In this document: in pieces, positions 25,840-52,932 of the stretch
How the letters are laid out: every line of letters starts with the position of its first letter
How positions within the stretch are numbered: position 1 is the stretch's first letter
Translations under genes and position numbers: made by a program
Notes under the pieces: generated by a model
What the model was told of the DNA's origin: nothing
The model's database searches: none
The model's input: the letters and a program-made list of their open reading frames with translations, nothing else
Assembly: GCA_964492225.1 (NCBI GenBank)
Contig: CAZBJM010000001.1
Coordinates: 30,599-94,598, forward strand
Length of the DNA: 64,000 nucleotides
Direction of reading: 5' to 3'
Source: an uncultured Methanosarcinales archaeon
GTDB taxonomy: Archaea; Halobacteriota; Methanosarcinia; Methanosarcinales; Methanosarcinaceae

Positions 25840-25875
25840 AGACCAGCCCAATAGAATATCGAAGGTCAGACAAAC

Positions 25876-26370: not shown

Positions 26371-26374
26371 TAGA

Positions 26375-26986: not shown

Positions 26987-26991
26987 ATATT

Positions 26992-27747
26992 ATGGTATAT
27001 AAACCACAGTTTTATCCAGGTGCAACATCCGTTGCAGTTAACAGAAGGAAGCACATGTCAGGTAAAGTGGAGAAGCTTAGGGATGTCTCCGACGATGACC
27101 TGACAATGATACTTGGTCACCGCGCACCAGGCAGTGACTACCCAAGCACTCACCCACCACTTGCAGAAATGGGTGAGCCTGACTGCTCTGTCAGACAGTT
27201 GGTCGATGCAACCCCAGGCGCAAAGGCCGGTGACAGGGTAAGGTATGTACAGTTCGTAGACTCAATGTATAATGGTCCATCCGTTCCATATTTCAGGTCC
27301 TACGCAGCAGCTATCAACTATAGAGGTGTTGACCCAGGTACACTTTCCGGTCGTCAGGTCGTTGAGGCCCGTGAGAGGGACATGGAACAGATTGCAAGGT
27401 TCCAGCTTGAAACTGAGATGACCTGTCCTGCACTTGCAAGCCTTAGGGGCGCAACTGTGCACGGTCACTCCCTCAGGCTCCCCGAGGATGGTGTGATGTT
27501 CGACATGTTGGACAGATGCAGAAAGGAAGGTGACGTGATCATAATGCACAAGGACCAGGTAGGCAGACCAATAGACAAGAAGGTCAACCTTGGTAAGCCA
27601 ATGTCTGAGGCAGAGGCAGCAAAGAGGACCACGATCTACCGTGTTGACAATGTGTCATTCAGAAGTGACAAAGAAGTCATTGAATGGGTGCACAGGGTGT
27701 TCGATCAGAGGACTACCTATGGTTTCAAGCCAGAGAGCAAGAGGTGA
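26992..27747 (+). CDS. mcrG: methyl-coenzyme M reductase gamma subunit
   Basis: The conserved N-terminus [10 protein letters not shown] starts at ATG 26992 (AAGGAG upstream). The track start at 26983 is a GTG overlapping the mcrC stop. Confidence 0.92.
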
Positions 27748-27752
27748 TGATA

Positions 27753-29471
<1,719 letters not shown>

Positions 29472-33463: not shown

Positions 33464-33868
33464 TCATTCTATGTCCCTTATTCCTGTAACCTTTGCCCCT
33501 TTGGCACTGGATGCAACGACTTCAAAATCCTTGAATGCAGCTACACCTGTACCATTGGTATCTTCAGGCACAAGGGCATTGCACCACGGACTGTCCACCA
33601 TGAAGGCAATTCCAGTATGAGCTTCTTCATATCCAGAAAGCATGGCTTTAACAATGACCTTTCCCCAGTTGTTCTTCAGGATGAGCGTATCCCCATCCTT
33701 TATCACCAATTTTGCAATATCCTTAGCATCGAGTCTTACCACTGCAGAAAGATGTTGGTATTCTTCCCCAAAGATAGAGCTCATTTTTGCAGTTTCCTGA
33801 AATGTATCCCGGTGTGTAACTATCCTCAGCTTCAGTTCAGGTGCAGCAAGGAATTGACCAAAACCCAT
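33464..33868 (-). CDS. formylmethanofuran dehydrogenase subunit D-like (molybdopterin dinucleotide-binding barrel)
   Basis: 134 aa. Follows the subunit B gene with a TAATG overlap. Confidence 0.8.
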   Translation of the reverse strand: MGFGQFLAAPELKLRIVTHRDTFQETAKMSSIFGEEYQHLSAVVRLDAKDIAKLVIKDGDTLILKNNWGKVIVKAMLSGYEEAHTGIAFMVDSPWCNALVPEDTNGTGVAAFKDFEVVASSAKGAKVTGIRDIE

Positions 33869-35127
33869 TATAGTGCCTCCCCTATCCTCTTTACTATCTC
33901 TTCATCCGAAAGTAGTTCAGTTTCAACTATCTGCTTTAATCGTACCTCAACACCATCCATACGGATAGCAGTACCACCAGCCTCCACTCCTGTAAGTGCA
34001 CAGGGTAAGCTCACGGTGGCCTTTTCATAAGTAAGGGTCCGATCATGGTCAATGACCACAAGTGGAATTTCTCCTAGGTACCTGGCGATAGAGCGTGGGA
34101 AGCTTGAGAAGGGGTCAGCCCCGATGATCAATGCCGCATCCACTGTTCTTTGCCTTAAGACCTCCAATACAGAACATTCCGGACCATGGGATAATTCCTG
34201 TCCATTGAACCTGACCCGATCGATATGACCGGTATCAGAGAAGAGCTTCTTATTGAAGCCACGCATGTTATAATGTCCTATCATTGGGATAAGATGGAAA
34301 TTGGATACAGAATTAAGCTTGTCCATAAGTCTGAAAAGAGTTTCATTCTCCTCCAGGGAATAGACCATTCCAAGACCTGCAAAGATCACACCGAACTTTG
34401 CCTTCTTCAATATGTTTGCAAGTTCTATCAGGCGTTTTGTATCAAAACCATAGGATGTCTTTGGTACCTTACCTGAAAGTGCACTCACCAATGCGTCCAT
34501 GAATTCAGTATCCCCTTTTACCGGGATCTGGTAGAATCCATTCTTTTTACATACTGCTGCTGTATCCGACCTTCGAACATCGATACAAATAGCAGTGCGG
34601 TCCTCCTCCCAGCCCCGCTGGCGCTCCTTGCCCCTGGGGAAATATGAATAACGCGACATATGCCTGGGATGTGAGTTAGCCGGGTCTGCACCCCAGAATA
34701 CGATCACGTCTGCCTTGTGGCGTACATCATCAAGGGTACATGTCTTTAACCTTTCATCAAAGAGAGCTTGCACCAGGGGCCCATGACCGAAGGATGAGAC
34801 ATCATCAATTACTCCATTGGTCCTTCTGGCAAGGTCGATTATCCTCTGCTGTGCCTCAGAGCTCGAGTTTGCATGACCAAATATTAGAGGGCTTTTTGCA
34901 TTTTTAAGTATATGGGCAGCTTCCTTTATGGCTGTCTCCACGTCTGAGACCTTACCATGCACCCTGCATTCCAAGGTATCTTTGCTACCCTTCATGAATG
35001 CTACACCTTTTCTGCATGCAGTGTGGACCTTTGTCAGCTCAGTACCTTCTACCTCCACACAGATATCATCACAAAGAAGCGCACAGCCTGTGCATACATA
35101 TTGCTCCTTGTCCATTTCATCCTCCAT
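33868..35127 (-). CDS. formylmethanofuran dehydrogenase subunit B-like (molybdopterin oxidoreductase)
   Basis: N-terminal CTGCALLCDD Fe-S motif and a molybdopterin oxidoreductase fold. Paralogous to 42801-44123. Confidence 0.85.
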   Translation of the reverse strand: MEDEMDKEQYVCTGCALLCDDICVEVEGTELTKVHTACRKGVAFMKGSKDTLECRVHGKVSDVETAIKEAAHILKNAKSPLIFGHANSSSEAQQRIIDLARRTNGVIDDVSSFGHGPLVQALFDERLKTCTLDDVRHKADVIVFWGADPANSHPRHMSRYSYFPRGKERQRGWEEDRTAICIDVRRSDTAAVCKKNGFYQIPVKGDTEFMDALVSALSGKVPKTSYGFDTKRLIELANILKKAKFGVIFAGLGMVYSLEENETLFRLMDKLNSVSNFHLIPMIGHYNMRGFNKKLFSDTGHIDRVRFNGQELSHGPECSVLEVLRQRTVDAALIIGADPFSSFPRSIARYLGEIPLVVIDHDRTLTYEKATVSLPCALTGVEAGGTAIRMDGVEVRLKQIVETELLSDEEIVKRIGEAL

Positions 35128-36487: not shown

Positions 36488-38122
36488 TCAAAGAAGGACC
36501 TTGAGGTCTTCTTCAACTGTTGAGTTTGGCATTATATTGAAATTGTCTACCAATACCTTTAGCACGTTTGGAGATACAAATGCAGGTAATGTTGGCCCCA
36601 GCATAATGTTCCTTACTCCAAGGCTCAGCAGTGCAAGCAGAACGAGTACTGCCTTTTGCTCATACCAGGCAATGTTATAGGACACTGGAAGTTCATTGAT
36701 GTCCTTAAGACCAAAGGCTTGCGCTAGTTTTTGTGCTATCAGCACCAATGAATATGAATCATTGCACTGGCCAGCATCAAGGACCCGCGGGATACCTCCT
36801 ATATTACCAAGGTCAAGCTTGTTGTATCTGTATTTTGCACAACCCGCCGTAAGGATCACAGTATCATCCGGAAGTGCCCGGGCGAATTCATTGTAATAGG
36901 TCCGCTCCTTATGTCTTCCATCACAACCTGCCATAACAACGAACCTGCGTATATGGCCTCCTTTGATGGCCTCGATGATCTTATCCGCGACCGAGAGCAC
37001 AGCAACATGTGCAAAGCCACCCATTATACTACCTTCATCCAGTTGCTTGGGTGCTTGGCATATCTTTGCCTGCTCTATCATGGCTGAGAAGTCCTTTGTA
37101 CCATCATCGTTTGCATCAATATGGACAAGCCCATCAAAACCAGCAACACCTGTCGTATATATCCTGTTAGCGTAAGAGCTTTTGGGAGCTACGATGCAAT
37201 TTGTGGTCATAAGTATGGGTCCGTTGAACATCTCAAACTCCTCTTTCTGCAACCACCACGCGCTACCATAGTTTCCCACAAGGTTGTCATATTCCTTGAA
37301 TGCAGGATAGGAGTTTGCAGGCAACATCTCCCCATGCGTATATACATCCACACCTGTACCTTTTGTCTGCTCAAGGAGCTGGGCAAGGTCATGCAGGTCA
37401 TGACCACTTATGAGTATTCCTGGATTGTTTCGGACCCCAATATTGACCGAAGTAGGTTCAGGATGCCCGTATGTGGATGTATTGGCCTTATCAAGCAGTG
37501 CAAGTGTATCCACTCCCACAGATCCACATTCCAGTACAAGTGAGATGAGTTCACTTTGACCTAGTTTGTCATCCATTGTATCCAGCAAAGCCTTCTCAAT
37601 GAAAAGATCTATCTTCTCATCACGATATCCCAGGACGCTGGCATGGTGAGCGTATGCTGCCATTCCTTTGAGCCCATATGTAATTAATGCCCTCAGAGAA
37701 CGAATATCCTCATTTTCAGTTGCTAGTACACCAGTGTCTACCTTGTCCAAGTCTTCCTTAGTAAGGTTTTCCATGACCCAGGAAGGAAGGGCTGAAGGAC
37801 CATTTTTATGGGGCAAGCATTCACGGTCAATTGTCTTTTTAATATCCTTTGCAAGCTTAAGGCCCTCAGTGATGAGCTCCCCTATATTGTCGCTACTGAA
37901 GTTGGTGTTGGTGATAGTGGCAAAAAGCCCGTCAAGGATAAAGTCCCCGCTTTCCTGAACCTTGATGCCGTATGACCTTGCCTTTGAACTATAGAATGCT
38001 ATGTTCTTCAGCACATAGATGAGGTCATCCTGAAGGTCGGCAACTTCTCCTTTCTTTCCACAGATGCCATTCCTTGTGCACCCGCTCCCATTTAAGGTTT
38101 CTTCGCATTGGTAACAGAACAT
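36488..38122 (-). CDS. hcp: hybrid-cluster protein / hydroxylamine reductase
   Basis: N-terminal [23 protein letters not shown] Cys cluster. 544 aa, typical Hcp layout. Confidence 0.9.
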
Positions 38123-38273: not shown

Positions 38274-40628
38274 ATGCGTATTGGAGTATACATCTGCCAC
38301 TGTGGACTAAACATTGCCCATACTATCAATGTCAGTTCCCTTAAGGAGAAAGCTGGTGACTTTGACGATGTTATCGTTGCCAAGGACATGCAGTTCATGT
38401 GCTCAGACTCCGGTCAGGAAGCTATCATCGGAGATATAAAAGAAAACAGGCTTGACAGGATACTTGTAGCTGCCTGCTCACCTCATTTGCATGAACCAAC
38501 CTTTAAGAGAGTGCTTTCAAAGGCCGGGCTCAATCCATTCATGTTTGAAATGGCAAACATACGGGAGCAGTGCTCATGGGTGCATCAGGAACAATCACAG
38601 CTGGCAACCCAGAAAGCCCTGGACCTTATAAGGATGGGATTGGCCAGATTAAGGCAACTTGACCCCCTGCAGGTCAAGAAGGTCCCGATCATAAAAGATG
38701 TGCTTGTAATAGGTGGAGGTGTTGCAGGTATCGAGGCGGCACTTACCCTTGCAGATTCAGGATATCATGTGCATATGGTGGAAAAGGAACCAACCATTGG
38801 AGGGAAGATGGCACTGCTAAACGAGGTCTTTCCAACCAACGATTGTTCCATATGTGTGCTGGCCCCAAAGATGACAGATGTGCAAAACCACCCAGGCATC
38901 AGTCTTATCACAATGGGTGAGGTCAGTGAGCTAAGTGGTTCAGTGGGCAATTTCCAGGTCAAGGTAAAAAAAAGGCCCAGATACGTGATAGAGAGCAAAT
39001 GTAAAGGTTGTGTGGATGAGTGTGGGCGTGTCTGTCCCATAGATATAGCAAACAGATTCGATTGCGGGCTTGGAAAGACAAAGGCCATCAATATGCCCAT
39101 CCCCCAAGCAGTCCCTCAGGTAGTCTACATCGACCCTGATTTCTGTATAGGCTGTGGTCTGTGTCAACAGGCATGTCCGGCAGATGCGATTGATTATACC
39201 CAGAAGGAGGAGATGATCGATATTGAAGTAGGCGCTATCATCCTGGCAACTGGATACAGTCATTTCGATGCTAGGCGCAAACCCGAATATGGTTATGGGA
39301 TATATCCGGATGTCATTACTAATATGGAACTTGAGCGTCTGCTCAATGCCGCAGGTCCTACCAAGGGAAGACCCGTTGTACCCTCTACCGGTCAAATTCC
39401 CAAAAAAGTAGTCTTTATCCAGTGTGTAGGTTCAAGGGACGAAAAGGTAGGCAATCCATATTGTTCCAGGATATGTTGCATGGCAAGTATGAAGAATGCC
39501 CAATTGCTCAAAGAACGCTATCATGATATGGACATCAGTATCCACTACATTGACATCCGTGCAGCCGGTGAGATGTATGAGGAATACTATATGCGTACAC
39601 AGTCCATGGGCATCGACTTCGTTCGGGGCAGGGTAGCAGAGGTTATGCGGAACCTTGATGGCCGATTATACTTGCGCTATGAGGATACACTGGCTGCGGA
39701 GATCCATGAGGAAGCATGCGACCTTGTGGTATTATCAACGGGCTTTGAGAATGTGCCCGAGGCTGACAAGCTTTCAAGGGTGTTGAACCTTTCCAGACGC
39801 CCTGACCGTTTCTTCTCTATAGCCCACCCCAAGATGAAGCCGGTGGATTCTCATGTAAGAGGCATATATATAGCCGGTTGTGCCTCAGGACCAAAGGAGA
39901 TACAGGTATCCATAGCCCAAGGCAGTGCTGCAGCAGCAAAGGCAATGCAACTCCTCTCCAAGGGAGAGATAGAAGCTGACCCACTCAGTGCACATGTGGT
40001 GCCCGATGCCTGTATCGGATGTGGTATATGTGCCAATGTATGTGAGTTCAAGAAAATAGAAATGATAGCACACAAGGCAGTGGTGGATGAATTATCGTGT
40101 ATGGGTTGTGGTGCATGCAGTGCTGCTTGTCCCACCGACGCCATCACAATGAACAACAGTACAGATGCTCAGATAATGGCCCAGATCCATGCAGCTACAG
40201 AGATCAGGTCAGAGTTCCCCTACATCGTTGCCTTCCTGTGCAATTGGTGTAGTTATACCTGTGCGGATCTGGCGGGTACCTCCAGGATACAATATCCCAC
40301 AAATATCAGGACCATCAGGGTTGCCTGTGCAGGACGCGTCGATCCTTCCTTTGTGCTTGAGGCATTGGGAAGGGGAGCCGATGGCGTGCTAGTTGCCGGA
40401 TGTCGCCTGGGTGAATGTCATTATGTGTTTGCGAACTATAATGCCAAACACAGGATGGAAGCCCTTCATGAAATGCTGGGTGAGGCGGGTATTGACCCTG
40501 GTCGTCTGCGTGTTGAGTGGATATCCGCGGCTGAGGGTGAAAGGTTTGCCGACTCCATCAAGAGCTTTGTGGAATACCTTGAAAGGATAGGTCCCATCGG
40601 CTCAGAACTACAGGGGGATAGGCAATGA
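38274..40628 (+). CDS. hdrA: heterodisulfide reductase subunit A fused to an MvhD-like domain
   Basis: MRIGVYICHCG start, FAD motif VIGGGVAGIEAAL, several CxxCxxCxxxCP motifs. The C-terminal FLCNWCSY...AGCRLGECHY is MvhD/FlpD-like. Confidence 0.88.
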   Translation: MRIGVYICHCGLNIAHTINVSSLKEKAGDFDDVIVAKDMQFMCSDSGQEAIIGDIKENRLDRILVAACSPHLHEPTFKRVLSKAGLNPFMFEMANIREQCSWVHQEQSQLATQKALDLIRMGLARLRQLDPLQVKKVPIIKDVLVIGGGVAGIEAALTLADSGYHVHMVEKEPTIGGKMALLNEVFPTNDCSICVLAPKMTDVQNHPGISLITMGEVSELSGSVGNFQVKVKKRPRYVIESKCKGCVDECGRVCPIDIANRFDCGLGKTKAINMPIPQAVPQVVYIDPDFCIGCGLCQQACPADAIDYTQKEEMIDIEVGAIILATGYSHFDARRKPEYGYGIYPDVITNMELERLLNAAGPTKGRPVVPSTGQIPKKVVFIQCVGSRDEKVGNPYCSRICCMASMKNAQLLKERYHDMDISIHYIDIRAAGEMYEEYYMRTQSMGIDFVRGRVAEVMRNLDGRLYLRYEDTLAAEIHEEACDLVVLSTGFENVPEADKLSRVLNLSRRPDRFFSIAHPKMKPVDSHVRGIYIAGCASGPKEIQVSIAQGSAAAAKAMQLLSKGEIEADPLSAHVVPDACIGCGICANVCEFKKIEMIAHKAVVDELSCMGCGACSAACPTDAITMNNSTDAQIMAQIHAATEIRSEFPYIVAFLCNWCSYTCADLAGTSRIQYPTNIRTIRVACAGRVDPSFVLEALGRGADGVLVAGCRLGECHYVFANYNAKHRMEALHEMLGEAGIDPGRLRVEWISAAEGERFADSIKSFVEYLERIGPIGSELQGDRQ

Positions 40629-41920
40629 GCTCAGTAGAAGAGGGGCGCAACTTCCAGGTATCTCGGGATATGGATGTCAATGGACATTGTTTTGTATTCC
40701 GTCAGATGACCGACAGAACGGTAAAGCTCCTTGAATATGATTATAAACGCTGCGTTGGATGTGGCATATGTGTTGGGATTTGCCCCACAAAGGCTCTCGA
40801 GCTTGGGCCTATCAAGGAGATAGCTACTGGTCTTGATGCACCTCCTGTGATGATGGACCTTGAGAAATGCACATTTTGTTCCATGTGTGCAAGCTTCTGC
40901 CCTCTTGATGCCTTCAGGATGAGCTCTCAAGGTGATATTGCTGAGAAGATGCCTGAACTTGAGACATATGTCCGCATGAACGAAAAATGTCTTCCCTGTG
41001 CCATATGTGCTGCAGCGTGCCCCAAAGAGGCCATAGACCTCGTTTTCACCTTCCAGAAAAAAGAGGAGATAGCTCCCTTCCTGGCAAAGGAGGAAAGGGG
41101 ATTTGAAGGTGAGATCGCTATCGATACAGAGAAATGCAACCTATGTGGCATATGTGCAGAGTTCTGTGATGCCTTCCTTCTGGTTGGCAAAGAGATGAAG
41201 CCCGATAGTCCAAACCCGTTTGAGCTTTTGCTGGTGGACGAGGATAAATGCGACTACTGTGTGCTGTGTCAGGATATCTGCCCTGAAGAGGCTATCCTTG
41301 TCAAGGGGGAAAGAAGAGGGGAGGCACCAGTACCTGAGGGACACCTTAGGGTGGATGAGCAAAAATGCACACGATGCACATGGTGTCAGGTCCTATGCCC
41401 ATATGAGGCTGTGGACATTAAAAAACCCTTTGCAGGGGAGATAAAGCTCAAGAGTGCAAATATCAGTGCATGTGACCCCCAGGGTTGCCATGCATGTTTC
41501 AATATATGTCCCTCAAAGCTCTGGTATGTGCCACAGGACAGTGATGCAAAGATAGCCATAATGGAGAGCTATTGTACCTATTGTGGTGCCTGTGTCAATG
41601 CATGTCCAAAAGATGTGATGGAGGTCTTACGTACCGATGTATCACATACTGTTATACCCGATGCGCCCTGGGCTTACCAATGGAAGGATGCTGTCAATGC
41701 GATAAAAACAGGCAAGCGCCAATATCCTGATACTTCCCGGACCCTTGCTATTGATAATGAGGTACCAGCAGGGTATGTTGAAGTTACGATGCCTGATATC
41801 GATCCATCATATCTGGAAGCTGCAAAGAAGCGCCTGGAAGATGTAGGGAAGCAGCTCATGCGTCCCAAGTATAGAAAGGATGTAGAAGCGAGGAGCGCTG
41901 GTCCGCAGACGAAGGAATGA
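40625..41920 (+). CDS. polyferredoxin (FwdF/MvhB-like, many 4Fe-4S motifs)
   Basis: About ten CxxCxxCxxxCP-type motifs. The start overlaps the hdrA stop (ATGA). Confidence 0.85.
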   Translation: MSSVEEGRNFQVSRDMDVNGHCFVFRQMTDRTVKLLEYDYKRCVGCGICVGICPTKALELGPIKEIATGLDAPPVMMDLEKCTFCSMCASFCPLDAFRMSSQGDIAEKMPELETYVRMNEKCLPCAICAAACPKEAIDLVFTFQKKEEIAPFLAKEERGFEGEIAIDTEKCNLCGICAEFCDAFLLVGKEMKPDSPNPFELLLVDEDKCDYCVLCQDICPEEAILVKGERRGEAPVPEGHLRVDEQKCTRCTWCQVLCPYEAVDIKKPFAGEIKLKSANISACDPQGCHACFNICPSKLWYVPQDSDAKIAIMESYCTYCGACVNACPKDVMEVLRTDVSHTVIPDAPWAYQWKDAVNAIKTGKRQYPDTSRTLAIDNEVPAGYVEVTMPDIDPSYLEAAKKRLEDVGKQLMRPKYRKDVEARSAGPQTKE

Positions 41921-42800: not shown

Positions 42801-44123
42801 ATGCAAGAAATTAAAGATGTGGTTTGTTCCTTATGTGGGTGCCTTTGTGATGATATTACGGTCTGTGTAGAGGAAAATAAGATATGTGATGTAAAAAATG
42901 CATGTATCCTTGGACAGAGCAAGTTTGTTGGATTATTTGAGCACGACAGAATAGAATTTCCTATGGTCAGAAAGAACGGAGAACTTGTTCCTGTCCCTTA
43001 TGAGGAAGCTATTGAAGCAGCCGCAAAGATCCTGTCAGGTTCCCGTAGGGCTCTTTTTTACGGGTGGTGTTCAACTTCATGCGAAGCCATCAGCGCTGCA
43101 ATACAGCTTGCAGAAGAAACGGGTTCTGTCATAGATTCTACAGCAAACGTGTGCCATGGACCATCTGCCCTTGCAGCCCAAGAAAAAGGCTCTCCTTCTG
43201 CATCTTTGGGTGAGATAAAAAATAGGGCGGATGTTGTTGTATTCTGGGGTTGCAACCCCATGCATGCCCACCCCAGGCATATGAGTCGCTACTCAAGTTT
43301 CTCAAAGGGCTTCTTTACTGAAAGAGGCAGGGATGACAGGACAATGGTAGTTGTCGATGTCAGAAAGACCGATACAGCAAAAATGGCAGATGCATATGTG
43401 GAGATAGAGCAGGGTGCGGATCTGCTCCTTGTAACTGCTCTGCGTTCTGTGATAAACGGACATGGGGATATAGTACCCACGACAGTGGCCGGTATTCCTA
43501 AGGCCCAGGTCTTTGAAGTTGCAAAGGTACTCAAGAACGCAAAATTCGTATGTATCTTTTTTGGAATGGGAGTCACACAATCAAGGTCCAAGTACAAGAA
43601 TGGCGATGCTGTATCATCCCTTGTTTCTGACCTTAACCAACACACAAAGGCCGTTATGATTGGAATGCGTGGCCATTATAATGTTACAGGTTTTGGACAG
43701 GTGGCTACATGGGAAACAGGATTCCCAATGGCTATTGACTTTTCCAAAGGATATCCCTATTACAATCCCGGTGAAACAGGAGCAAACGACCTGCTTATAC
43801 GCGAAGAGCCAGATGCTGCTATCATAGCTGCAGCAGACCCTGGAGCACACTTCCCTCAAAAAGCGGTCAGACATCTTGCAAGGATCCCTTTGGTCCAGAT
43901 AGATCCCTATGCAAATCCTACTACCGAGCTTGCAGATGTGGTGATCCCATCAGCAATAGTAGGAATTGAAGCGGAAGGAACAGCCTACCGTATGGATGTA
44001 GTTTCCCTGCGTATGAAAAAACTGATTGACACGAGTTTCAAGACCGATGAAGAGATTGTAAAGGACCTGACGCAAAAAGTAAGAGAGTTAAAGGGAGGAA
44101 GAGTGGAATGTCAGAGATCCTGA
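42801..44123 (+). CDS. fwdB: formylmethanofuran dehydrogenase subunit B
   Basis: CSLCGCLCDD motif and a molybdopterin oxidoreductase fold. 440 aa. Confidence 0.88.
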   Translation: MQEIKDVVCSLCGCLCDDITVCVEENKICDVKNACILGQSKFVGLFEHDRIEFPMVRKNGELVPVPYEEAIEAAAKILSGSRRALFYGWCSTSCEAISAAIQLAEETGSVIDSTANVCHGPSALAAQEKGSPSASLGEIKNRADVVVFWGCNPMHAHPRHMSRYSSFSKGFFTERGRDDRTMVVVDVRKTDTAKMADAYVEIEQGADLLLVTALRSVINGHGDIVPTTVAGIPKAQVFEVAKVLKNAKFVCIFFGMGVTQSRSKYKNGDAVSSLVSDLNQHTKAVMIGMRGHYNVTGFGQVATWETGFPMAIDFSKGYPYYNPGETGANDLLIREEPDAAIIAAADPGAHFPQKAVRHLARIPLVQIDPYANPTTELADVVIPSAIVGIEAEGTAYRMDVVSLRMKKLIDTSFKTDEEIVKDLTQKVRELKGGRVECQRS

Positions 44124-45823
44124 TCAAAAACGCCAGTGTATGTGACCCAATTCAAGGGATAGACTGCGAGAAGATGGATATTTGCATAAAGGATGGGAAA
44201 ATTGTGGAAACGGTGTCCTCTTATGCAACTCAGATAGATGCAGGTGGCAGGCTCACGATGGCAGGAGCTATAGATGGACATACTCACAGTGCTGGTAAGA
44301 TCAATGCTGGACGATTTATGAACCCAAATGATGCCAGGATTAATCTCGTGCAGGGTCTTTCAGGTCCGGAGGCCCGTACAGATAGAACAAGGGCTCAGGT
44401 CGGCTACAACACACCAAATACATACGCAATTGGTTACAGGTACGCCAAATTGGGTTATACCACTATATGTGAAGCTGCGATGCCACCCCTTACAGCACGA
44501 CATACCCATGAAGAGTTCAAGGAGATACCTATTTTAGATAAAATGGGCCTTACTCTTTTTGGAAGTAACTGGCAGGTAATGGAATATATCCGGGATAAAG
44601 AGCCAGAGAAACTTGCAGCCTATGTAGCTTGGGCCCTTAAGGCCTCAAGAGGTTATGGTATAAAGATAGTAAATGCAGGTGGTGGAGAAGCTTGGGGATG
44701 GGGTAGGAATGTCAGTGGACTTTACGACCATGTTCCATACTTTGATGTGACCCCGGCAGAGATACTGCAAGGTCTTGGAGAAGTAAATGAAAAGCTGGGT
44801 CTGCCCCATTCAGTACATGTTCACTGCAACAACCTTGGTCACCCTGGAAACTACAAGACCACTATTGAGAGCATGAAGCTATTTGAAAGGATAAGGACCA
44901 GACGTAACAGACAAAACCTGCATGTGACCCATGTCCAATTCAATGCTTATGCAGGTACTTCCTGGCGTGACTTTGAAACTGGTGCGCCTATGGTTGCTGA
45001 TTACATAAATAGTGTTGATCACCTTACTTTTGACCTAGGACAGCTTATTTTTGGTCCAGCTGTTACCATGACAGCCGACGGACCTGTGGAATATGCAAAC
45101 TCTAGGATGCTAAAGGAAAAGTGGAGTAACCAGGATGTGGAGCTGGAAGATGCATCCGGGGTGGTACCACTTAACTATTCCCCAAAGAGCTTTGTAAATG
45201 CTGTTCAGTGGGCGATAGGGCTTGAGCTCGGTCTGCTTGTAAAGGATCCATGGAAGGTCATGTTTGCAACCGATAGCCCAAACGGCGGGTCCTTTGTAAA
45301 CTATCCAGAGGCCTATACCTATCTTATGAGTGAAAAGAAGAGACAGCAAGTCATGTCGAGCTTTCCAGAGACCGCTTTTTCAAGAATGGTCCTTCCTGGT
45401 ATTGACAGAGAACTGAGCTTTTATGAGCTCGCAATTACAACAAGAAGTATTCAATCAAGGATGTATAGCAGACCTGAAAAAGGAAACCTTGCAGTTGGTG
45501 CAGATGCAGACATTGCCATATATGATATAAAACCCGATTCGATCGATCCTTCCATTGAGCATGAAAAGCTAAAAAAGGCATTCAGTGCTGCCACTTATAC
45601 CTTCAAGGATGGAAATGTAGTTGTCAAGGATGGGAACATCGAATCCACTCCCAAGGGCAGGACCTATTGGGTGAACGCAAAGGTTCCGGAAGATATCGAA
45701 AAAGCGATGCATGAGGACATTGACATCAAGTTCAGGAAATACTATACCGTGAGCAAATCCAACTATATGGTAGAGGATGTATATGTTCCCAGATCGGTCG
45801 AGGTAGAAGCGGGGTGGTCCTGA
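44108..45823 (+). CDS. fwdA: formylmethanofuran dehydrogenase subunit A (amidohydrolase)
   Basis: 571 aa amidohydrolase-fold protein (AIDGHTHS metal motif). Overlaps the fwdB end by 16 nt. Confidence 0.88.
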   Translation: MSEILIKNASVCDPIQGIDCEKMDICIKDGKIVETVSSYATQIDAGGRLTMAGAIDGHTHSAGKINAGRFMNPNDARINLVQGLSGPEARTDRTRAQVGYNTPNTYAIGYRYAKLGYTTICEAAMPPLTARHTHEEFKEIPILDKMGLTLFGSNWQVMEYIRDKEPEKLAAYVAWALKASRGYGIKIVNAGGGEAWGWGRNVSGLYDHVPYFDVTPAEILQGLGEVNEKLGLPHSVHVHCNNLGHPGNYKTTIESMKLFERIRTRRNRQNLHVTHVQFNAYAGTSWRDFETGAPMVADYINSVDHLTFDLGQLIFGPAVTMTADGPVEYANSRMLKEKWSNQDVELEDASGVVPLNYSPKSFVNAVQWAIGLELGLLVKDPWKVMFATDSPNGGSFVNYPEAYTYLMSEKKRQQVMSSFPETAFSRMVLPGIDRELSFYELAITTRSIQSRMYSRPEKGNLAVGADADIAIYDIKPDSIDPSIEHEKLKKAFSAATYTFKDGNVVVKDGNIESTPKGRTYWVNAKVPEDIEKAMHEDIDIKFRKYYTVSKSNYMVEDVYVPRSVEVEAGWS

Positions 45824-45824
45824 T

Positions 45825-46589
45825 ATGCAGATAATTACAATGTCCTTGAAAACACAGAACAAGATCCCTATAGAAGCTACTTCTATAAGTCCGGATAAAT
45901 TTGCCGGAAAGACCAATGATGCTATCAGAGCAATGCTACTGTGGTATGGGAATGAGCAATGTCCAATTGGGGACCTATTCAATGTAGATGTTGAAGGTAA
46001 CGATAGTGCTGAGAATACACGCATTGTGATCAATGGTGATGTTTCAAGGGTAAAACGCATTGGTCAGGATATGAGCTCAGGTGAGATAATGATCAATGGG
46101 AATGTAGACATGCATTGCGGTTCAAATATGAAAGGTGGAAGGATCGTGATAAACGGGAATGCAGATAGCTGGCTTGGTTGTGAGATGAAGGGTGGAGAGA
46201 TCATACTTAATGGAAATGGCGGCTACTATGTAGGAGGAGGATATCGCGGAGAAAGCTGTGGTATGAAGGGGGGTAGGATCATTGTAAATGGGAATGTTTT
46301 GGACTATCTAGGAGAGCACATGTGTGGAGGGGAGATCCATGTGACAGGTAATGCCGGTTTGCTTCCTGCTATCGCAAATAATGGAGGTACCATAACCATT
46401 GAAGGTGACACCGAAATGCCAGCAAGTGATATGAAAAAGGGCACTGTTATCATTAGAGGAGAGGTAAGGGATCTGTTACCATCCTATCGAATGGACGGAA
46501 GTGAAGAAATTGACGGAGCTATCTATCGTCGGTTCATAGGAGATGTCAATATAGGCGGAAAAGGTGTCCTTCTAATAAAGGAAGTATAA
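45825..46589 (+). CDS. fwdC: formylmethanofuran dehydrogenase subunit C
   Basis: Repeated GG-I-ING-N beta-helix motif (GGRIVINGNA, GGEIILNGNG, GGRIIVNGNV). Confidence 0.88.
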   Translation: MQIITMSLKTQNKIPIEATSISPDKFAGKTNDAIRAMLLWYGNEQCPIGDLFNVDVEGNDSAENTRIVINGDVSRVKRIGQDMSSGEIMINGNVDMHCGSNMKGGRIVINGNADSWLGCEMKGGEIILNGNGGYYVGGGYRGESCGMKGGRIIVNGNVLDYLGEHMCGGEIHVTGNAGLLPAIANNGGTITIEGDTEMPASDMKKGTVIIRGEVRDLLPSYRMDGSEEIDGAIYRRFIGDVNIGGKGVLLIKEV

Positions 46590-46612: not shown

Positions 46613-47836
46613 GTGCACCAAAATATTCAAAGGGAAATGTGCATGGATATGACATTGAATAAGAGATGTTCTATTGATGATGCTTTGAGATATTTTCTCA
46701 AGCATGTGCATCCTTTGATGAGGACAGAAGATATCCCACTTGAATTTTGTACGGATAGGGTAGTTGCAGAAAAAGTATCATCGAAAAGGGATGTACTCCA
46801 CTACCGGCGTGCTGCAATGGATGGTTATGCTGTATATGCGTCTGACACCGCAGGTGCTTCCCCGGATAGTCCTGTCTATTTGTACCTTTCAGATATGGTT
46901 TCTGTAGGACGTGTTGTTTGGGTACATACAGGAGACATAATGCCTACAGAGGCTGATGCTGTTGTTGTTGTAGAGGATACGGAGAGGGTTGGTGATATTA
47001 TCGAAGTATGCTCCCATGTGCATCCTGGTAAGAACGTGGCAGAAGTGGGAGAAGACATAAAAGAGGGGGACATGATATTTGAAAAGGGCCATCTTTTGCG
47101 TCCATGTGATGCAGCTGTGCTTGCTTCTATGGGACTAAATGTAGTTAATGTGTTTCAAAGACCAGTCATTGCAATAATCCCAACCGGAGATGAGTTGGTC
47201 AGCCGCGAAAAAGCAGGAGAGGTCCCTCCACCTGGGATGGTTCTTGAGACCAATGGACTGATGACCGCTCTCTATATAAGGAAATGGGGTGGGATCCCCC
47301 GATATAACCAGATAGTGCCCGATGAACCGGACTGTATTAAAAAGGCAATAGAGGCAAACCTTGATGCTGACATGATAATCCTTTCAGGAGGAACATCCGT
47401 TGGAAAAAGGGATCATGTACCGGATGTGGTGACATCGTTGGGAGAATTGCTTGTGCATGGTATCAAAGTAAGTCCAGGAAAACCTACTGCCCTTGGTATT
47501 GTAGATCAGAGACCTGTAGTTTGCCTCCCAGGTTATCCAGTAGCTGGATTTGTTGCTCTTTACTTTTTGGTCCGCCCCCTGATCAGGAGACTGGCATCCA
47601 TCAATTGCTCATCAATACCTATAGTAAAAAGGCCTCTGGCAACGAGGATTACCTCAAAGAAGGGGAATGCGAATTTCATTTGTGTTGCCTTCGATGGGAA
47701 AAAAGTGCATCCTTTTACAGGTGCAAAGGCTGGTTCCCTGAGCGTGGTTGCAAAGGCTGATGGTTTTTTTCTTGTACCTGAAAATGTGGAAGAGTATGAT
47801 GAGGGAGAAGAAGTGGATGTATTCTTGCTTGAATGA
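46613..47836 (+). CDS. moeA: molybdopterin molybdotransferase
   Basis: MoeA domains with [16 protein letters not shown]. The start is uncertain: GTG 46613, or ATG at 46637, 46643 or 46649. Confidence 0.85.
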
Positions 47837-47956: not shown

Positions 47957-48538
47957 TCAAAGGGAACCATTGTCCGACCGAAGCACTGCATCCATGAACC
48001 TCTTGAGTATATCCACCGGACATATGCCTACATTGGGCAGGTCAACATTTCCAGGGGCCACTTTTACAACGATCACACCATAGTGAACACTTTCAATGAG
48101 TAAAATGAATTGCTCAAGGTCATTGGCCTCATACACTGCCCTGTTCCCAGCTCCTTTTGCTATCTGCGCAAGATCACTGCAATTGGCTGTTGCAGTGCTC
48201 TGATCACCAGTGGAACCATAGGAACCATTGTCGATGACCACAAGAAGGAGATTATCCGGAGAACGTGTGGCTATGCTTGCCAGACTGCCCAGATTCATGA
48301 GCATTGAACCATCACCTTCAATGACCATGACATCCCTATCTGGCTTAGAAAGCGCAAGACCAAAGCCTATTGATGATGCAAGTCCCATAGAGCCAAGCAT
48401 ATAGAAATTACCTGGGGCGTCGTACATACTATATAGTTCCTTGCATGGTATGCCTATATTACAGATAAGAAATGCACCAGTCTGCTTTGCCCTTTCAGCA
48501 ATTACCCGGATGGCATCGATCCGCCGCATGTCTGTCAT
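47957..48538 (-). CDS. comE: sulfopyruvate decarboxylase beta subunit
   Basis: TPP-binding motif IEGDGSMLMNLGSL. ATG 48538 shares one base with the comD stop. Confidence 0.85.
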   Translation of the reverse strand: MTDMRRIDAIRVIAERAKQTGAFLICNIGIPCKELYSMYDAPGNFYMLGSMGLASSIGFGLALSKPDRDVMVIEGDGSMLMNLGSLASIATRSPDNLLLVVIDNGSYGSTGDQSTATANCSDLAQIAKGAGNRAVYEANDLEQFILLIESVHYGVIVVKVAPGNVDLPNVGICPVDILKRFMDAVLRSDNGSL

Positions 48539-49059
48539 CAACTCCTCCAGAAAACTATAGGCAAAAGCACAGCAACCGGCTTTTTTTCAAGTTCTGCCCT
48601 TTTCCATGCCTGACAGATGTGTTCGCAAGCCTTATCTTTATTGACAATGATGGAATATGGGATGCTAAGAACATCCAGAAGACCGGGGGTTAGCTCTCCC
48701 ATTGGGACCTGGGCACAAATGGATTCACCTTCCACTCCTCTGTGACTGATGATCATTAAAAGTGGTATCCCATATAGAATGTTCAATGAAGCAAGGGCAT
48801 TTATCGAATTTCCAAGACCAGAGTTCTGCATGAGCATTGCCGGTCTTTTGCCCCCCATATAAGCTCCTGCACATATTCCCACCCCTTCCTCTTCACGGGT
48901 CACCGGTACATGGATGATGGTCGGGTCCTGGGCAACAAGTGGAATGAGCTCCTTTAGATTTATGCAAGGCACGCTGACAATAAGATCGATGCCTGCATTC
49001 CTTATACCTTGGTACACTGCTTTTGTTGGTGTGACCGTGTCTATCATTATATTCACCAT
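48538..49059 (-). CDS. comD: sulfopyruvate decarboxylase alpha subunit
   Basis: 173 aa TPP-enzyme N-terminal (pyrimidine-binding) domain, immediately upstream of comE. Confidence 0.85.
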
Positions 49060-49718
49060 ACCTTGAGGTCTATGGCCTCGATACGCACGTCTTTCCCCTC
49101 TGAGCTAACAAGCACTCCCGAGTGTACCTTCTGCATCATACAATACTCAGGAATGAACTTGACCGTCTGCCCTATCTTTGGCAACTTCCCCCGGGAAATT
49201 TTGCCTTCAAAGGCCAGTATCATGCATAGACCTAACTCTTTGAATGTGATACCCTCAACGCCCAAGCGATGTATAGGGCCTACAATGTGTATCGTATAGA
49301 TACCTGCAGCCAAGTCTATCACCCTGCCAAAATGTGTAATTGGGCAAGCAAGTGGTCTGTAGCGGACCAGGTCCCCTATCTGTGCACTGGCATTTGCATC
49401 AAAGGGGTGGATGAGCTCCCTGCAAGAGCATTCACCCTTCAGGGGAGCAAGTACAAGATCCGCATCGACATTATCGATCACTCCTGTTATCCTTTCCTCT
49501 GTACATGGGGCAGTGCTTAGAAGCAAGGATAGACGTTCTCTCTTTTCTGCGAAAATGTCCCTTGAGAGAAAAGGACACTTAACAAGGTCCTCGGGGTCTT
49601 TTATTTGTGCCGCAAAATCCCTACATTGTCTGAAACCACAGCTACCGCAATTATATCCCGGAAGGAGAGTATGCAGATCGAAGCTCACATCACTCACCCC
49701 TGTACTCCATAAAACCAT
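49053..49718 (-). CDS. uncharacterised protein with RnfB/CdhE-type N-terminal Fe-S motif
   Basis: [19 protein letters not shown] resembles LLPKTNCKECGKSTCMVFA of ORF 35173-35634. ~220 aa. Start is ATG 49718 or GTG 49697; both overlap the upstream gene, and the stop overlaps the comD start. Confidence 0.6.
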
Positions 49719-50388
49719 CAAGCTGTCTGAGCACACCCATGTGATGCTTGCGGGATACACGGCTTTCTCCAGTGCACAGGGTGCATATAGCAAGTGGAGG
49801 GTTATAGCGCAAGACCATATTATCGGATACATCGGGACCTTTCATGACCAGATCAGCAAGTTCAAAGCTACCTTTTCCAGTAAGACCATTTGCCTCTACA
49901 ATGGTGCATTCCGTGTTGACATCAAGGACTCGTTCCCTGAACACCTCTCTTTCTGCCTGGGACACAAGGTCACCCTTTGTCATAACGACAATATCGGCTG
50001 TCGTAAGCAAAGGTCCTACTTTCAAAGGCGTGTTGGGACCCGTTGTGACATCGATGACACAAATGGCAAGACAATCGTTGGGATATGGAGCACAACGCAA
50101 GCAAAGTCCTGCTGTTTCATTGAGCACTATGTCAGCACCATGTTCAAGGCCCCAACTTAACATACTATCGGTATTGTAGATCGTGAAATGGTCTGGGCAC
50201 ATGTCTTTTGCAAGTCCTACATGTACTGGTATATCGAGTTTGCGGAAGCGCTGGTCGTCATCTGTCCAAAGGCAATCTACTTTGACCACAGCAGGTTTCT
50301 TTCCATCTCTTATGAGGGCCTTTATAGTATGCATCAGCACCGAGGTCTTGCCAGAACCGGGGGTGCCTGCAAGTATTACCAGTTTCAT
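49690..50388 (-). CDS. G3E-family (HypB/UreG/CobW-like) P-loop NTPase
   Basis: Walker A GTPGSGKTS, LNETAGL switch region, TKGD (NKxD-like). ATG 50388 forms an ATGA overlap with the upstream stop. Confidence 0.65.
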   Translation of the reverse strand: MKLVILAGTPGSGKTSVLMHTIKALIRDGKKPAVVKVDCLWTDDDQRFRKLDIPVHVGLAKDMCPDHFTIYNTDSMLSWGLEHGADIVLNETAGLCLRCAPYPNDCLAICVIDVTTGPNTPLKVGPLLTTADIVVMTKGDLVSQAEREVFRERVLDVNTECTIVEANGLTGKGSFELADLVMKGPDVSDNMVLRYNPPLAICTLCTGESRVSRKHHMGVLRQLDGFMEYRGE

Positions 50389-51149
50389 GCCAGCTTCTCG
50401 ATGGTCTCTCCCTTGCGGATACTTTCCCTTAGGGATAATAGCCATTCATCTGCCTGGACGATGCGCTCATATACGACCTTCTCCTCAATACTTGTCGTGA
50501 TGATATCTACCATTGCCCCGTTGCGTATAACAACTCGGCGGGATGCCATTAGGGCCAGGACTGGATCATGGGTGACAACAATGACTATCTTCCCCTCTCC
50601 CGTAAGTAAATTGAGGGCCTCCTGTTTCTTGATACCTGCATTCTCTATCTCATCAATGAGCACCACTGGTGAATCACTTATGACTGCTATATCTGCGGTC
50701 ATCAGGGAACGGGACTGTCCTCCGCTTAGCACTGTAAGAGCTTGCTGTGGATAGATGGGCTCCCCTGTGAGGGTGTTGGCAAGTGCTATGACCCTTTCCA
50801 CAAGATCTGGCCCTTTTCCTCTGCTACGAGCGTGCATTTGTAGGAAATCCATAACGGTCATGTCTGCAAGAAAATGCATCTTCTGGGATAGCTGGGCCAC
50901 AAGTTTCCTTCGTGGATCTGCCCTGATGGATGCATCCGGGATCTTTCCATTGATAAGTATGCATCTGCCTGTGGGAGTATCACCTCTGGCAAGCTGTTCT
51001 ATATCGTCGATGAGAGTGCTTTTGCCTGAACCGGTTGGTCCAACTATCCCTATTATCTCACCTGTGCTTATGTTCAGATAGGGTACAGGTTCAGCTATCC
51101 CATCCTTATCCACACCACCCAATATGGTCAGTGTCATTACATTCTTCAT
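50385..51149 (-). CDS. stand-alone ABC-type ATPase (no permease partner nearby)
   Basis: Walker A GPTGSGKS, signature LSGGQ, Walker B VVLIDE. ATG 51149 lies 1 nt after the upstream stop (TGA 51153-51151). Confidence 0.8.
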   Translation of the reverse strand: MKNVMTLTILGGVDKDGIAEPVPYLNISTGEIIGIVGPTGSGKSTLIDDIEQLARGDTPTGRCILINGKIPDASIRADPRRKLVAQLSQKMHFLADMTVMDFLQMHARSRGKGPDLVERVIALANTLTGEPIYPQQALTVLSGGQSRSLMTADIAVISDSPVVLIDEIENAGIKKQEALNLLTGEGKIVIVVTHDPVLALMASRRVVIRNGAMVDIITTSIEEKVVYERIVQADEWLLSLRESIRKGETIEKLA

Positions 51150-51150
51150 A

Positions 51151-52398
51151 TCATACACCAAACCTTCTATGGACCATTGCTATTATTTCAGCCTCAGCAT
51201 CCTTATCTTTACCAGATACATGTAGATCTGGAATAATAGGCCACACAGGCATATCCTGCCTCAGCTTCTTCTGGCCACCGCCGGTTATGTTCAGGACTAT
51301 GCGTTCATCTGCTGACACACTCCCATCCTCTACTGCCTTTATCAATGCTGCAATGGCCACCGCTGCTGCTGGATCGAGATCGATCTCTTCTTGCTCTTCA
51401 AATAGGGAACGGGCCCTTGAGGCTTCTTCATTGCTCATTGCATACATAGTGCCCCTTGTAGCCACAAGCGCATCCCGTACACCGCCTTGTATCGTATATG
51501 GAGCTTTGCGGTTGAACAGCACGTCATCGTACATCCCTTGTGGACATGATGATGCAAAAGTATCGGTCCCATGCCAGAGGGAGTAAAGAGGAGCACAGGG
51601 AAGGTTCTGTGCCAGATGGAGACGTGGAAGCTTAGACCCGAACCTAGTATCGGCAATGAGTCTTATTGAAGCTTCCCATGCGGATATTCCTCCAGTGCCA
51701 CTCCCCACTGCTTGGAAATAGTGATCAGGAAGTGAGCCTGAACTAAGTACGGCATCCAGCATCACCGTAGCCATACCATCCCTTCTGGCAACATTACGTG
51801 CCCCTCCTTCGTTTACAAACCCAATGCCAGATGCGATCTTTCCAGCAAGGGTAATGGTATCGGTATAATCACCATCCACTGTCACAAGACAAACAGATGG
51901 CCGATTGGGTAAAATGGTCCATAGACGATGCACGCTTTCCGCAGGGACCATGAGCAACAATGGCTGACCTGTGATACTGCATACATGGGCAAAGGCCCTT
52001 GCTGTATTACCAGCGGATGCTACGACCATTATCCTATCATCGTTCTGCTCTTTCAGACACTGCATTGTAGGGAAGGATTCCAGGTCCTTGAAGGTGCAGG
52101 TCATCAAAAATGCATTCCTTCGGGGCCAATATCCATTAAAGGCGACCCATAGGTCATTTAGTCCCAACTGTGAAGCAAATGCCTCACTTTTGTAGGTAAC
52201 CGTTCTTCCTGACCCTTCAATGATACCACTGACAGGCAACCAGTTCTTATATCTCCATATTCCAGGTAGGTCCGTAGGCTCAAGCTGCACCGATGGATAA
52301 TCAGTGGCCAGAAGTGCATCATGACCCATCCTGCAATTTAAAGAGAATGGACCGTGGATCTCTCCACAGTGCAAACACCTGATACTATATTGAGTCAT
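51151..52398 (-). CDS. cysteate synthase-like PLP enzyme (threonine synthase homologue)
   Basis: Threonine-synthase fold with an N-terminal CLHCGE zinc-ribbon-like motif, TFKDLE lysine region and GGARNVARRDGM..PDHYFQAVGSGTGGISAWEAS. The operon link to comDE favours cysteate synthase over threonine synthase. Confidence 0.72.
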   Translation of the reverse strand: MTQYSIRCLHCGEIHGPFSLNCRMGHDALLATDYPSVQLEPTDLPGIWRYKNWLPVSGIIEGSGRTVTYKSEAFASQLGLNDLWVAFNGYWPRRNAFLMTCTFKDLESFPTMQCLKEQNDDRIMVVASAGNTARAFAHVCSITGQPLLLMVPAESVHRLWTILPNRPSVCLVTVDGDYTDTITLAGKIASGIGFVNEGGARNVARRDGMATVMLDAVLSSGSLPDHYFQAVGSGTGGISAWEASIRLIADTRFGSKLPRLHLAQNLPCAPLYSLWHGTDTFASSCPQGMYDDVLFNRKAPYTIQGGVRDALVATRGTMYAMSNEEASRARSLFEEQEEIDLDPAAAVAIAALIKAVEDGSVSADERIVLNITGGGQKKLRQDMPVWPIIPDLHVSGKDKDAEAEIIAMVHRRFGV

Positions 52399-52932
52399 CC
52401 TTCTATGGTGAACAAAAGTATGTTATAAATTTTTCCTTTATTGAGAGCATTATTGCCTTATTAGGGGAATAATACACACTTTAATGTACAATAAGGAAAA
52501 ATTAATAAATTATAATAAATATACTGTATAATCAAAAGACACTATGAGACCTTTGACATAAATGTTTGGTCCATATCTTGTATCCAAGGTTCACAGTTTC
52601 ACTTATGCTCTGCCAGAAGGAGCAACTGAAAAGCAAGCTCTTTTTAGAGCCTTGCATAACATTGAGGAACACATAGCAAAAAAAGATGCGATAGACTATA
52701 GAAAGTAGAGTATGAGCGGGTTGGGGGTGGGGGGTTATTGTCAAAATATAGATAGCCCGCTCATCTACAACACATATTGTTGACGTTTATATTTATATTT
52801 AGTGGTGTTCATCATCATAATGATGATAATAACATATTTAATATATAATGTACTGATTAGATATAAAAGAACCATGCTTCAATAAAGAAAATGCTAAATA
52901 CAACCTAGCCCCCTTATTTACGTGGTGAAATA

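Follow-up and report, generated by a model that had tools for sequence, protein, structure and literature searches.

Without coenzyme M (CoM) there is no biological methane formation and no anaerobic oxidation of methane or alkanes. Archaea make CoM by two routes, which are entered through cysteate synthase (CS), which has a pyridoxal phosphate (PLP) fold, and through phosphosulfolactate synthase (ComA; PF02679). These enzymes are unrelated, and sulfite is the only substrate common to both reactions. Methanogens are grown on sulfide and poisoned by sulfite. The origin of the sulfite for the CoM sulfonate is an acknowledged gap and among the last open points of the pathway; reverse small sulfite reductases have been proposed, yet many methanogens do not have them. 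The final thiolation, which a sequence-only reading of the DNA studied here had counted among the least defined steps, is now assigned to MMP16/ComF (Chadwick, Williams, Shalvarjian & Nayak 2025, PLoS Genet 21:e1011695; PMC12068725). While drawing MMP16 neighborhoods, the same authors met three genes near CoM genes in several methanogen orders, which one sentence in their Fig. 2B legend lists as 'ATPase / Ni2+-binding GTPase / COG2000 Fe-S protein', "role unknown" (PMC12068725). Here, we analyzed an instance of this cluster, hereafter the trio, in a 64,000-nucleotide stretch (the window) from an uncultured Methanosarcinales archaeon (GCA_964492225.1, contig CAZBJM010000001.1, forward-strand positions 30,599 to 94,598). 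A literature search on COG2000, on the Methanothermobacter tags next to comA, and on sulfite, GTPase and CoM gave nothing beyond that legend, in agreement with the earlier view that the trio is uncharacterized. The co-localization with CoM genes is thus already in print; the legend does not cover the preferential position of the trio behind CS or ComA, its autonomy and mobility, including in Bacteroidota, or the anatomy of its proteins, and these are described below.

Each part of the trio is of a known kind (G3E metallochaperone, soluble ABC ATPase, PF04060 cluster domain); no characterized system combines them. The nickel insertion systems of urease (UreG with UreE, UreF and UreD) and [NiFe]-hydrogenase (HypB with HypA) resemble it in the G3E fold, in the UreG CPH nickel site, with which CPDH of the trio GTPase can be aligned, and in a small Cys/His partner encoded next door. 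However, the trio GTPase scores far below the UreG and HypB cut-offs and has four extra invariant cysteines and a conserved C-terminal extension; its partner is unlike UreE or HypA, an ABC ATPase is included, and no urease or hydrogenase client is present. The N-terminal [4Fe-4S] domains of AcsC/CdhE and RnfB, low-potential one-electron relays, share the PF04060 domain and the four-Cys spacing with the trio Fe-S protein, which has a novel duplicated beta-barrel instead of a corrinoid-binding or polyferredoxin part. Component A2 of MCR activation and SufC of the SufBC2D complex serve ATP-driven low-potential electron transfer and cluster assembly; like the trio ABC protein of this anaerobe they are soluble ABC ATPases that act with Fe-S proteins and without a membrane partner, and offer a possible analogy. 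By contrast, two nucleotide-binding domains are fused in A2, SufC depends on SufB and SufD, and a G3E partner is missing from both; the sequences gave no specific relationship. L-aspartate semialdehyde sulfurtransferase and MMP16 (COG1900 plus ferredoxin) also handle sulfur for methanogen cofactors with a Fe-S carrier, and the genes are sometimes adjacent, but there is no homology to the trio, and no COG1900/MMP16 gene is present in the trio or anywhere in the window.

In the window, the trio lies within a minus-strand run of six genes (52398-47957) that has no intergenic space and is joined by overlaps or 1-nucleotide gaps. The order from 5' to 3' is CS, ABC ATPase, G3E GTPase, PF04060 Fe-S protein, comD and comE, with the following genes and flanking signals.

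52423..52429, minus strand: TATA-box-like TTTATAA in an AT-rich stretch, about 25-31 nucleotides 5' of the CS ATG; putative operon promoter, from sequence reading
51151..52398, minus strand: CS, first operon gene (phosphoserine + sulfite to cysteate); TIGR03844, 566 bits against a cut-off of 324.9; PF00291
50385..51149, minus strand: stand-alone single-domain ABC-type ATPase, 254 amino acids; PF00005, 52.9 bits against 25
49690..50388, minus strand: G3E-family P-loop GTPase, 232 amino acids; PF02492, 48.4 bits against 20.7
49053..49697, minus strand: Fe-S protein of the COG2000 family, 214 amino acids; PF04060, 37.2 bits against 23
48538..49059, minus strand: comD, sulfopyruvate decarboxylase alpha subunit; TIGR03845, 227.5 bits against 148
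47957..48538, minus strand: comE, sulfopyruvate decarboxylase beta subunit, last operon gene; TIGR03846, 220 bits, just below the cut-off of 221.5; PF02775
47900..47950, minus strand: imperfect hairpin CCCTGGTCC...GGACAGGG followed by the T-run TATTTTTT; likely transcript end, from sequence reading

The sequence-only reading had described six coupled minus-strand open reading frames, and all of them, with their junctions, are present; its gene labels agree with the profile searches, ComE falling marginally below its cut-off, and the PF04060 match spans the Cys motif that it had pointed out. The CS stop codon TGA (51153-51151) is separated from the ABC ATG (51149) by a 1-nucleotide spacer, the ABC stop and the G3E start overlap as ATGA (50388-50385), and the comD stop and the comE ATG have one base in common (TGATG, 48540-48536). 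The G3E stop (49692-49690) overlaps the Fe-S gene by 8 nucleotides when the latter starts at GTG 49697. This is most likely the correct start, as it is that of an identical database protein (P0001, 214 amino acids); conservation among homologues begins at about residue 7 of this form. The ATG at 49718, at which the gene had earlier been started, is a possible alternative, as is GTG 49688. The Fe-S stop (49055-49053) overlaps comD by 7 nucleotides if comD starts at ATG 49059 rather than at 49047. Downstream, the convergent moeA gene ends at 47836, beyond the comE hairpin. Taken together, TTTATAA 5' of CS and the hairpin with its T-run 3' of comE suggest a single transcription unit, and the earlier proposal that the trio is co-transcribed with CoM genes is supported. 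The hairpin was not picked up by a simple terminator scan, but this promoter and terminator scan uses a bacterial consensus and is uninformative for an archaeal operon.

With CS and both sulfopyruvate decarboxylase subunits (ComE with the reservation given above), the run corresponds to an archaeal type-2 CoM operon. The identical six-gene order was found in 21 genomes of Methanolobus, Methanosalsum and Methanohalophilus, and the arrangement is far beyond chance. In comparison with Methanolobus, identities were 80-88% for the G3E protein, 74-83% for the ABC protein, 62-73% for CS and 57-65% for ComE. Judged from these identities, selection constrains the trio more strongly than the pathway enzymes on either side. 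We also observed that residues 8-26 of CS (window 52398-52320) contain C8-x2-C11...C22-x3-H26, a zinc-ribbon-like pattern and a possible metal site of relevance to the adjoining GTPase.

We surveyed 121 loci with a homologue of the Fe-S protein, comprising 24 loci of species-representative genomes, 80 metagenome loci and 17 loci from exact look-ups of distant members. Of these, 120 were annotated by tblastn with reference proteins and one (L121) was read separately; to remove redundancy, the Fe-S proteins were collapsed at 90% identity into 76 groups. The genome scan used one query protein and returned mostly Methanolobus, and the metagenome scan used a narrower alignment. The order ABC-G3E-Fe-S with directly adjoining genes was found in 65 of the 76 groups. 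Six of the other 11 are cut by a contig end, and five differ (one permuted order of Fe-S, SDR, ABC and G3E; three lone Fe-S genes; one deletion). The gene directly 5' of ABC in the 65 groups is CS in 47, ComA in 4, a response regulator in 2, SDR in 1, another gene in 6 and a contig end in 5, so that CS or ComA stands directly upstream of the trio in 51 of the 60 informative groups (85%). On the other side, the gene 3' of the Fe-S gene is comD in 21 groups (about a third) and MMP16 in 2, and is otherwise mostly unrelated. The identities of the neighbors are above curated cut-offs: ComA scored 332-341 against 280 (TIGR03849), CS 554-617 against 325, and MMP16 512-527 against 364 (TIGR03287). The layouts were as follows.

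Methanolobus, Methanosalsum and Methanohalophilus group: CS-trio-comDE, with a convergent MMP16 directly after comE
Methanothrix: CS-trio, with neither comDE nor MMP16 within 8 kb
Methanobacteriaceae: ComA-trio, with a 1-nucleotide overlap of ComA and ABC, and neither comDE nor MMP16 within 8 kb
One uncultured archaeon (L032): trio-MMP16-CS-comDE, the Fe-S gene overlapping MMP16 (TIGR03287, 512 bits)
ANME-1 (L030): trio convergent with MMP16
Methanoregula: trio alone, no CoM gene nearby

The survey thus gave a strong association with CoM biosynthesis across orders. Because the Methanothrix and Methanobacteriaceae layouts have neither comDE nor MMP16 near, the minimal conserved unit is a sulfite-using enzyme plus the trio. 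The position between the first and third pathway enzymes, from which a role had earlier been argued, is therefore specific to certain lineages. It had also been said that a usual context other than CoM genes would speak against the association: such contexts exist, in Methanoregula, Bacteroidota and a Chloroflexia metagenome-assembled genome (MAG), but they are not the usual one. In methanogens and ANME, the trio has in the great majority of loci been recruited to where the CoM pathway begins.

A sizeable clade of Fe-S homologues belongs to Bacteroidota, with Maribellus, Mariniphaga, Mangrovibacterium, Draconibacterium and Bacteroidales MAGs. Here the trio forms a five-gene cassette of a HisKA_3 histidine kinase, a NarL-type regulator, ABC, G3E and Fe-S (L121, L036, L037 and L039), in which the kinase, of the intramembrane type, spans the membrane with three helices and carries no sensor domain. 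Mangrovibacterium marinum has two copies, one of which (L121 6793-10657) lies between the coupling-protein and relaxase genes of a CTnDOT-like conjugative element, near defense-type genes (AAA_21/RloB, PycTM). In the Chloroflexia MAG (L024) and another bacterial contig (L034), the trio is paired with an extended-SDR protein. No CoM gene was found within 9-10 kb at any bacterial locus surveyed. Since it occurs without CoM genes in Methanoregula, Bacteroidota and other bacteria, and once on a conjugative element, we regard the trio as an autonomous, transferable module.

The extended-SDR gene (epimerase/dehydratase-like) is inserted in these bacterial trio clusters at 4584-5546 in L024 and 4757-5752 in L034. 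At the catalytic YxxxK position, the L024 protein is without the Tyr, and YYHQK is found in the L034 protein. An assignment of these proteins as UDP-sulfoquinovose synthase, and hence as a third user of sulfite, was considered but is not supported: the NCBIfam score for that enzyme tied with that of dTDP-glucose dehydratase, far below the cut-off, SQD1 came only about 39th among the PDB matches, and the catalytic Tyr is missing in L024.

We next turn to the three proteins. The ABC protein contains Walker A GPTGSGKS (G37-K43), Q-loop Q89, L141-SGGQ145, Walker B D166-E167 and H-loop H194; these catalytic motifs are invariant among 10 diverse homologues and make up the full set of an active nucleotide-binding domain. 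None of 153 NCBIfam matches reached its cut-off (best, 55 bits against 966), and the closest PDB sequences are generic MacB-type nucleotide-binding domains, with no specific relative among them. The protein does not look like part of a transporter: there is no permease gene alongside, and the neighbors, here and in the 65 loci, are soluble enzymes as judged from family profiles and tblastn annotation. In the GTPase, all 16 homologues compared keep G8-PGSGKT15 (Walker A), E91-TAG94 (Walker B) and T137-KGD140 (base specificity), and C96, C99, C202, C205, H216 and a C-terminal YxGE are further invariants of archaeal and bacterial members. C64-P65-D66-H67 is also invariant and aligns, with a one-residue insertion, with the nickel-binding CP-H motif at the UreG dimer interface (5xkt and 4hi0); it is a candidate metal motif. 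The scores for HypB (TIGR00073, 49.5 against 121.2) and UreG (TIGR00101, 31.3 against 204.2) are below the curated cut-offs, so the GTPase is neither of these. The COG0523/CobW-type zinc/cobalt chaperones do not fit either, as the CxCC motif was not found (GLCLRC instead) and ZigA scored 16 bits against 600. By these profile and motif comparisons, the GTPase is a distinct G3E subfamily.

The Fe-S protein is closest to relatives in Methanolobus (70% identity). Its N-terminal domain has four cysteines, C17, C20, C25 and C41, that are invariant in 21 sequences with the spacing CX2CX4CX15-16C. Matches of the family profile to PDB sequences were confined to the N-terminal cluster domain of CFeSP (AcsC, 4djd_C, E=3e-8) and to RnfB, and by profile comparison this domain is homologous to their [4Fe-4S] domains. 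The match is limited to residues 13-65, and the protein remains below the equivalog cut-offs of both families (NF003195, 26.5 against 306; rnfB, 24.5 against 68.7). A helix and a variable linker lead to a C-terminal domain that is all-beta in the AlphaFold model (pLDDT 92) and has the invariants C118-x3-H122 and C186-x5-H192. In a Foldseek search of the PDB, no match of the model reached E<0.001; the weaker ones were generic small beta-barrels (the N-terminal barrel of ATP synthase B) and the CFeSP N-domain. When the two C-terminal halves were aligned with hhalign (P=0.027), GxxVRYRPxxC118xxxH122 paired with GxTVKFxPxxC186xxxxxH192. This profile-profile alignment sets the Cys...His hairpins in register and hence indicates an internal duplication of the beta-barrel. 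As each half thereby has its invariant Cys and His on a corresponding hairpin, the C-terminal domain likely holds a pseudo-symmetric Cys2His2 metal site. A Rieske-type or other known Cys2His2 center was considered and set aside, because the motifs are C-x3-H and C-x5-H, 64 residues apart, rather than CxH...CxxH loops, and no PDB fold matched (E>0.01). The family is small: among 1.8 billion proteins, clustering at 50% identity leaves 134 representatives, about 30 of them full length. Domain fusions among distant homologues, which contain only repeated PF04060 domains or ferredoxins, gave no Rosetta-stone hint.

What could such a module do at the start of the CoM pathway? The trio stands near-constantly, and translationally coupled, behind the unrelated CS and ComA even where no other CoM gene is near, which argues for a function connected with sulfite. 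We tentatively favor the reading, possible rather than probable, that the trio is one self-contained metallo-redox module, driven by nucleoside triphosphates (NTP), that provides sulfite to the first CoM enzyme. The CFeSP-type four-Cys domain, the UreG-like CP(D)H motif and the invariant Cys2His2 set in a duplicated domain fit a redox metalloprotein served by a metal-handling GTPase. In such a scheme, the Fe-S protein would be the effector, its low-potential CFeSP/RnfB-type [4Fe-4S] domain trading electrons with a metal held by Cys2His2 at the barrel interface. The UreG/HypB-like GTPase would load or gate this metal center, and a dimer of the ABC ATPase would supply ATP-driven conformational work, either for assembly or for gating the transfer of electrons or substrate. 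Sulfite might be formed from sulfur in a more reduced state, or be bound and passed on, and would be used at once by CS (ComA in other orders) made from the same mRNA, so that toxic free sulfite would not accumulate. By reasoning rather than from a result, moving electrons from sulfide to low-potential carriers on the way to sulfite would need an energy input, which would give a rationale for two NTPases. Of the two steps for which the trio had earlier been proposed as a candidate, sulfite supply or handling is accordingly the one we favor (CS/ComA in 51 of 60), and the final thiolation less so (comDE at 21 loci, MMP16 at 2).

Several points weigh against sulfite provision. The functional argument is, throughout, one of guilt by association, and the surveyed loci are biased to relatives of the Methanosarcinales protein. 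The position of CS and ComA as first genes of their operons could by itself put them beside the trio. MMP16 directly adjoins the trio in L032 and in the ANME-1 locus L030. The Methanoregula and Bacteroidota trios have no CoM gene near, and no sulfite-related neighbor was seen there; in Bacteroidota the trio is under an intramembrane-type two-component system and can be the cargo of a conjugative element. In single cases the trio has a neighbor for metal homeostasis (ArsR in L024; in L030, an HMA P-type ATPase), which suggests that its role with metals is more general. Graham and colleagues are said to have found, in 2002 and 2009, that recombinant CS and ComA are active in vitro with added sulfite, and so the trio would not be needed for catalysis itself. 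We know of no precedent for a sulfite-forming 22-kDa protein without siroheme or molybdopterin. Finally, in Methanosarcina acetivorans the genes MA3297 (cs), MA3298 (comDE) and MA3299 (MMP16) are consecutive and no trio is present, in agreement with the sequence-only reading for cs and comDE (PMC12068725). Methanosarcina makes CoM via CS without a trio in the operon, and no Methanosarcina protein was found among the named matches; the trio is therefore not universally required. Our confidence in sulfite provision is low because the evidence is positional, the survey is biased to one clade, the bacterial loci show no sulfite link, Methanosarcina does without the trio and the chemistry would be unprecedented.

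Other explanations have to be weighed against the same evidence. The trio may be a general module for metal delivery or metallocenter maintenance whose client varies among lineages and which is merely co-expressed with CoM genes in methanogens; the GTPase would be a chaperone for Ni, Zn, Co or Fe, the Fe-S protein a redox-sensing adaptor and the ABC ATPase a motor. We consider this rather unlikely, although the characterized G3E proteins (UreG, HypB, CobW and MeaB) are metallochaperones, a UreG-like metal motif is kept here, and the module is autonomous, mobile in Bacteroidota and under two-component control. The neighbors that suggest it are single cases (in L024, an ArsR-type regulator; in L030, NifU, cysteine desulfurase and a divergent HMA P-type ATPase), and the bacterial cassettes encode no known metalloenzyme client. 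The Cys/His-rich N-terminus of CS (C8-x2-C11...C22-x3-H26) would suit a metal client, whereas ComA occupies the same position with no comparable Cys motif, and a linkage of 85% to sulfite users is hard to square with a generic role. Assistance at the last step, by supplying low-potential electrons or sulfur to MMP16/ComF or by maturing its metallocenter, is unlikely in our view. ComF is a COG1900 'metalloprotein' with ferredoxin domains; its sulfur donor and electron source have still to be named in the literature, and CFeSP-type clusters typically relay electrons at low potential. It was by way of MMP16 neighborhoods that the cluster was met by Chadwick et al. (PMC12068725), and MMP16 is overlapped by the Fe-S gene ahead of CS and comDE in L032, is convergent with the trio in L030 and lies convergent right behind comE in the Methanolobus group. 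On the other hand, MMP16 is directly beside the trio in only 2 of 65 groups, does not occur within 8 kb of it in the layouts of Methanothrix and Methanobacteriaceae or anywhere in the window, has its own ferredoxin domain and works in M. acetivorans without the trio; the tight coupling to CS and ComA would also be left unexplained.

A more specific form of sulfite provision, in which the trio is itself the sulfite source for sulfonate biosynthesis in strict anaerobes, a siroheme-free NTP-driven metalloenzyme channeling its product to CS or ComA, is distinctly unlikely as it stands. Its route would start from sulfide or persulfide, with ATP and GTP paying for the uphill transfer of electrons to a low-potential carrier; reductive cleavage of thiosulfate would be an alternative. 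If it were true, the Bacteroidota cassette would serve other sulfonates, such as cysteate-derived sulfonolipids. We regard as quite improbable a regulatory or protective switch, that is, a redox- or sulfite-sensing NTPase device that tunes CoM flux or protects against sulfite or oxidative stress. Fe-S domains are often sensors, the CoM level of Methanosarcina is tied to oxidative-stress resistance, and the bacterial trio is associated with an intramembrane-sensing kinase and a NarL-type regulator and can be carried by a conjugative element, as stress or resistance traits typically are; yet family searches found no DNA-binding or signaling output domain in any of the three proteins, no precedent for such a device was found, and an enzyme or a part in assembly would agree better with the very high conservation and the coupling within a biosynthetic operon. 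Anti-phage defense, or selfish cargo that is in the operon by accident, is extremely improbable and effectively refuted by conservation. The ABC ATPase gave weak partial PADLOC matches (mad3, 57 bits; AriA, 40 bits) and a conjugative element carries one bacterial copy close to AAA_21/RloB and PycTM, but the matches span the P-loop region only, the Fe-S protein has no PADLOC match, and the order and position are kept across archaeal orders with 80-88% identity, the opposite of defense-island behavior. A module tied to both non-homologous sulfite-using enzymes makes the sulfite question testable by genetics and biochemistry. The trio is also a possible target for the inhibition of methanogenesis, and its spread in Bacteroidota, partly on mobile DNA, gives it wider interest.

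The rest of the window (mmp10, mcrBDCGA, hdrA2, hcp, fwdBAC, moeA and topoisomerase VI) indicates a Methanosarcinaceae methylotroph. The slot after comE that holds MMP16 in Methanolobus, Methanosalsum and Methanohalophilus is here occupied by the first two of the following features.

46613-47836, plus strand: moeA
42801-46589, plus strand: fwdBAC
38274-41920, plus strand: HdrA2, then a polyferredoxin
36488-38122, minus strand: hybrid-cluster protein/hydroxylamine reductase
33868-35127, minus strand: second formylmethanofuran dehydrogenase B-like gene
22974-29471: mcrBDCGA with divergent upstream mmp10 (arginine methyltransferase), about 20 kb from the CoM operon

Individual loci of the survey showed further departures from the common layouts. 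In L030 (1-11200; Methanophagales/ANME-1), the trio is divergent from the HMA P-type ATPase and convergent with MMP16-NadA, with NifU, cysteine desulfurase and Thi4 near, and these surroundings form a sulfur and metal handling neighborhood. In L050, 4 kb separate comDE from the trio, and the genes lying there were uninformative, as were the neighbors of the lone Fe-S gene in L092. This gene, which adjoins a polyprenyl synthase, and those in L081 and L109 are archaeal Fe-S genes with no ABC or G3E within 8 kb (8001-8654 in L081 and L092). A Methanolobus MAG (L023, 6456-7381) has a junction of CS residues 1-188 with Fe-S residues 89-214, by which ABC, G3E and half of two genes are gone, and in another Methanolobus MAG (L022, 5539-7608) ABC, G3E and Fe-S are frameshifted. 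The junction and the frameshifts could be natural losses or assembly artifacts. In L071 (6590-6979) and L068 (2733-3215), a second Fe-S fragment without an open reading frame lies about 1.2 kb 3' of the intact copy and looks like a decayed partial duplication.

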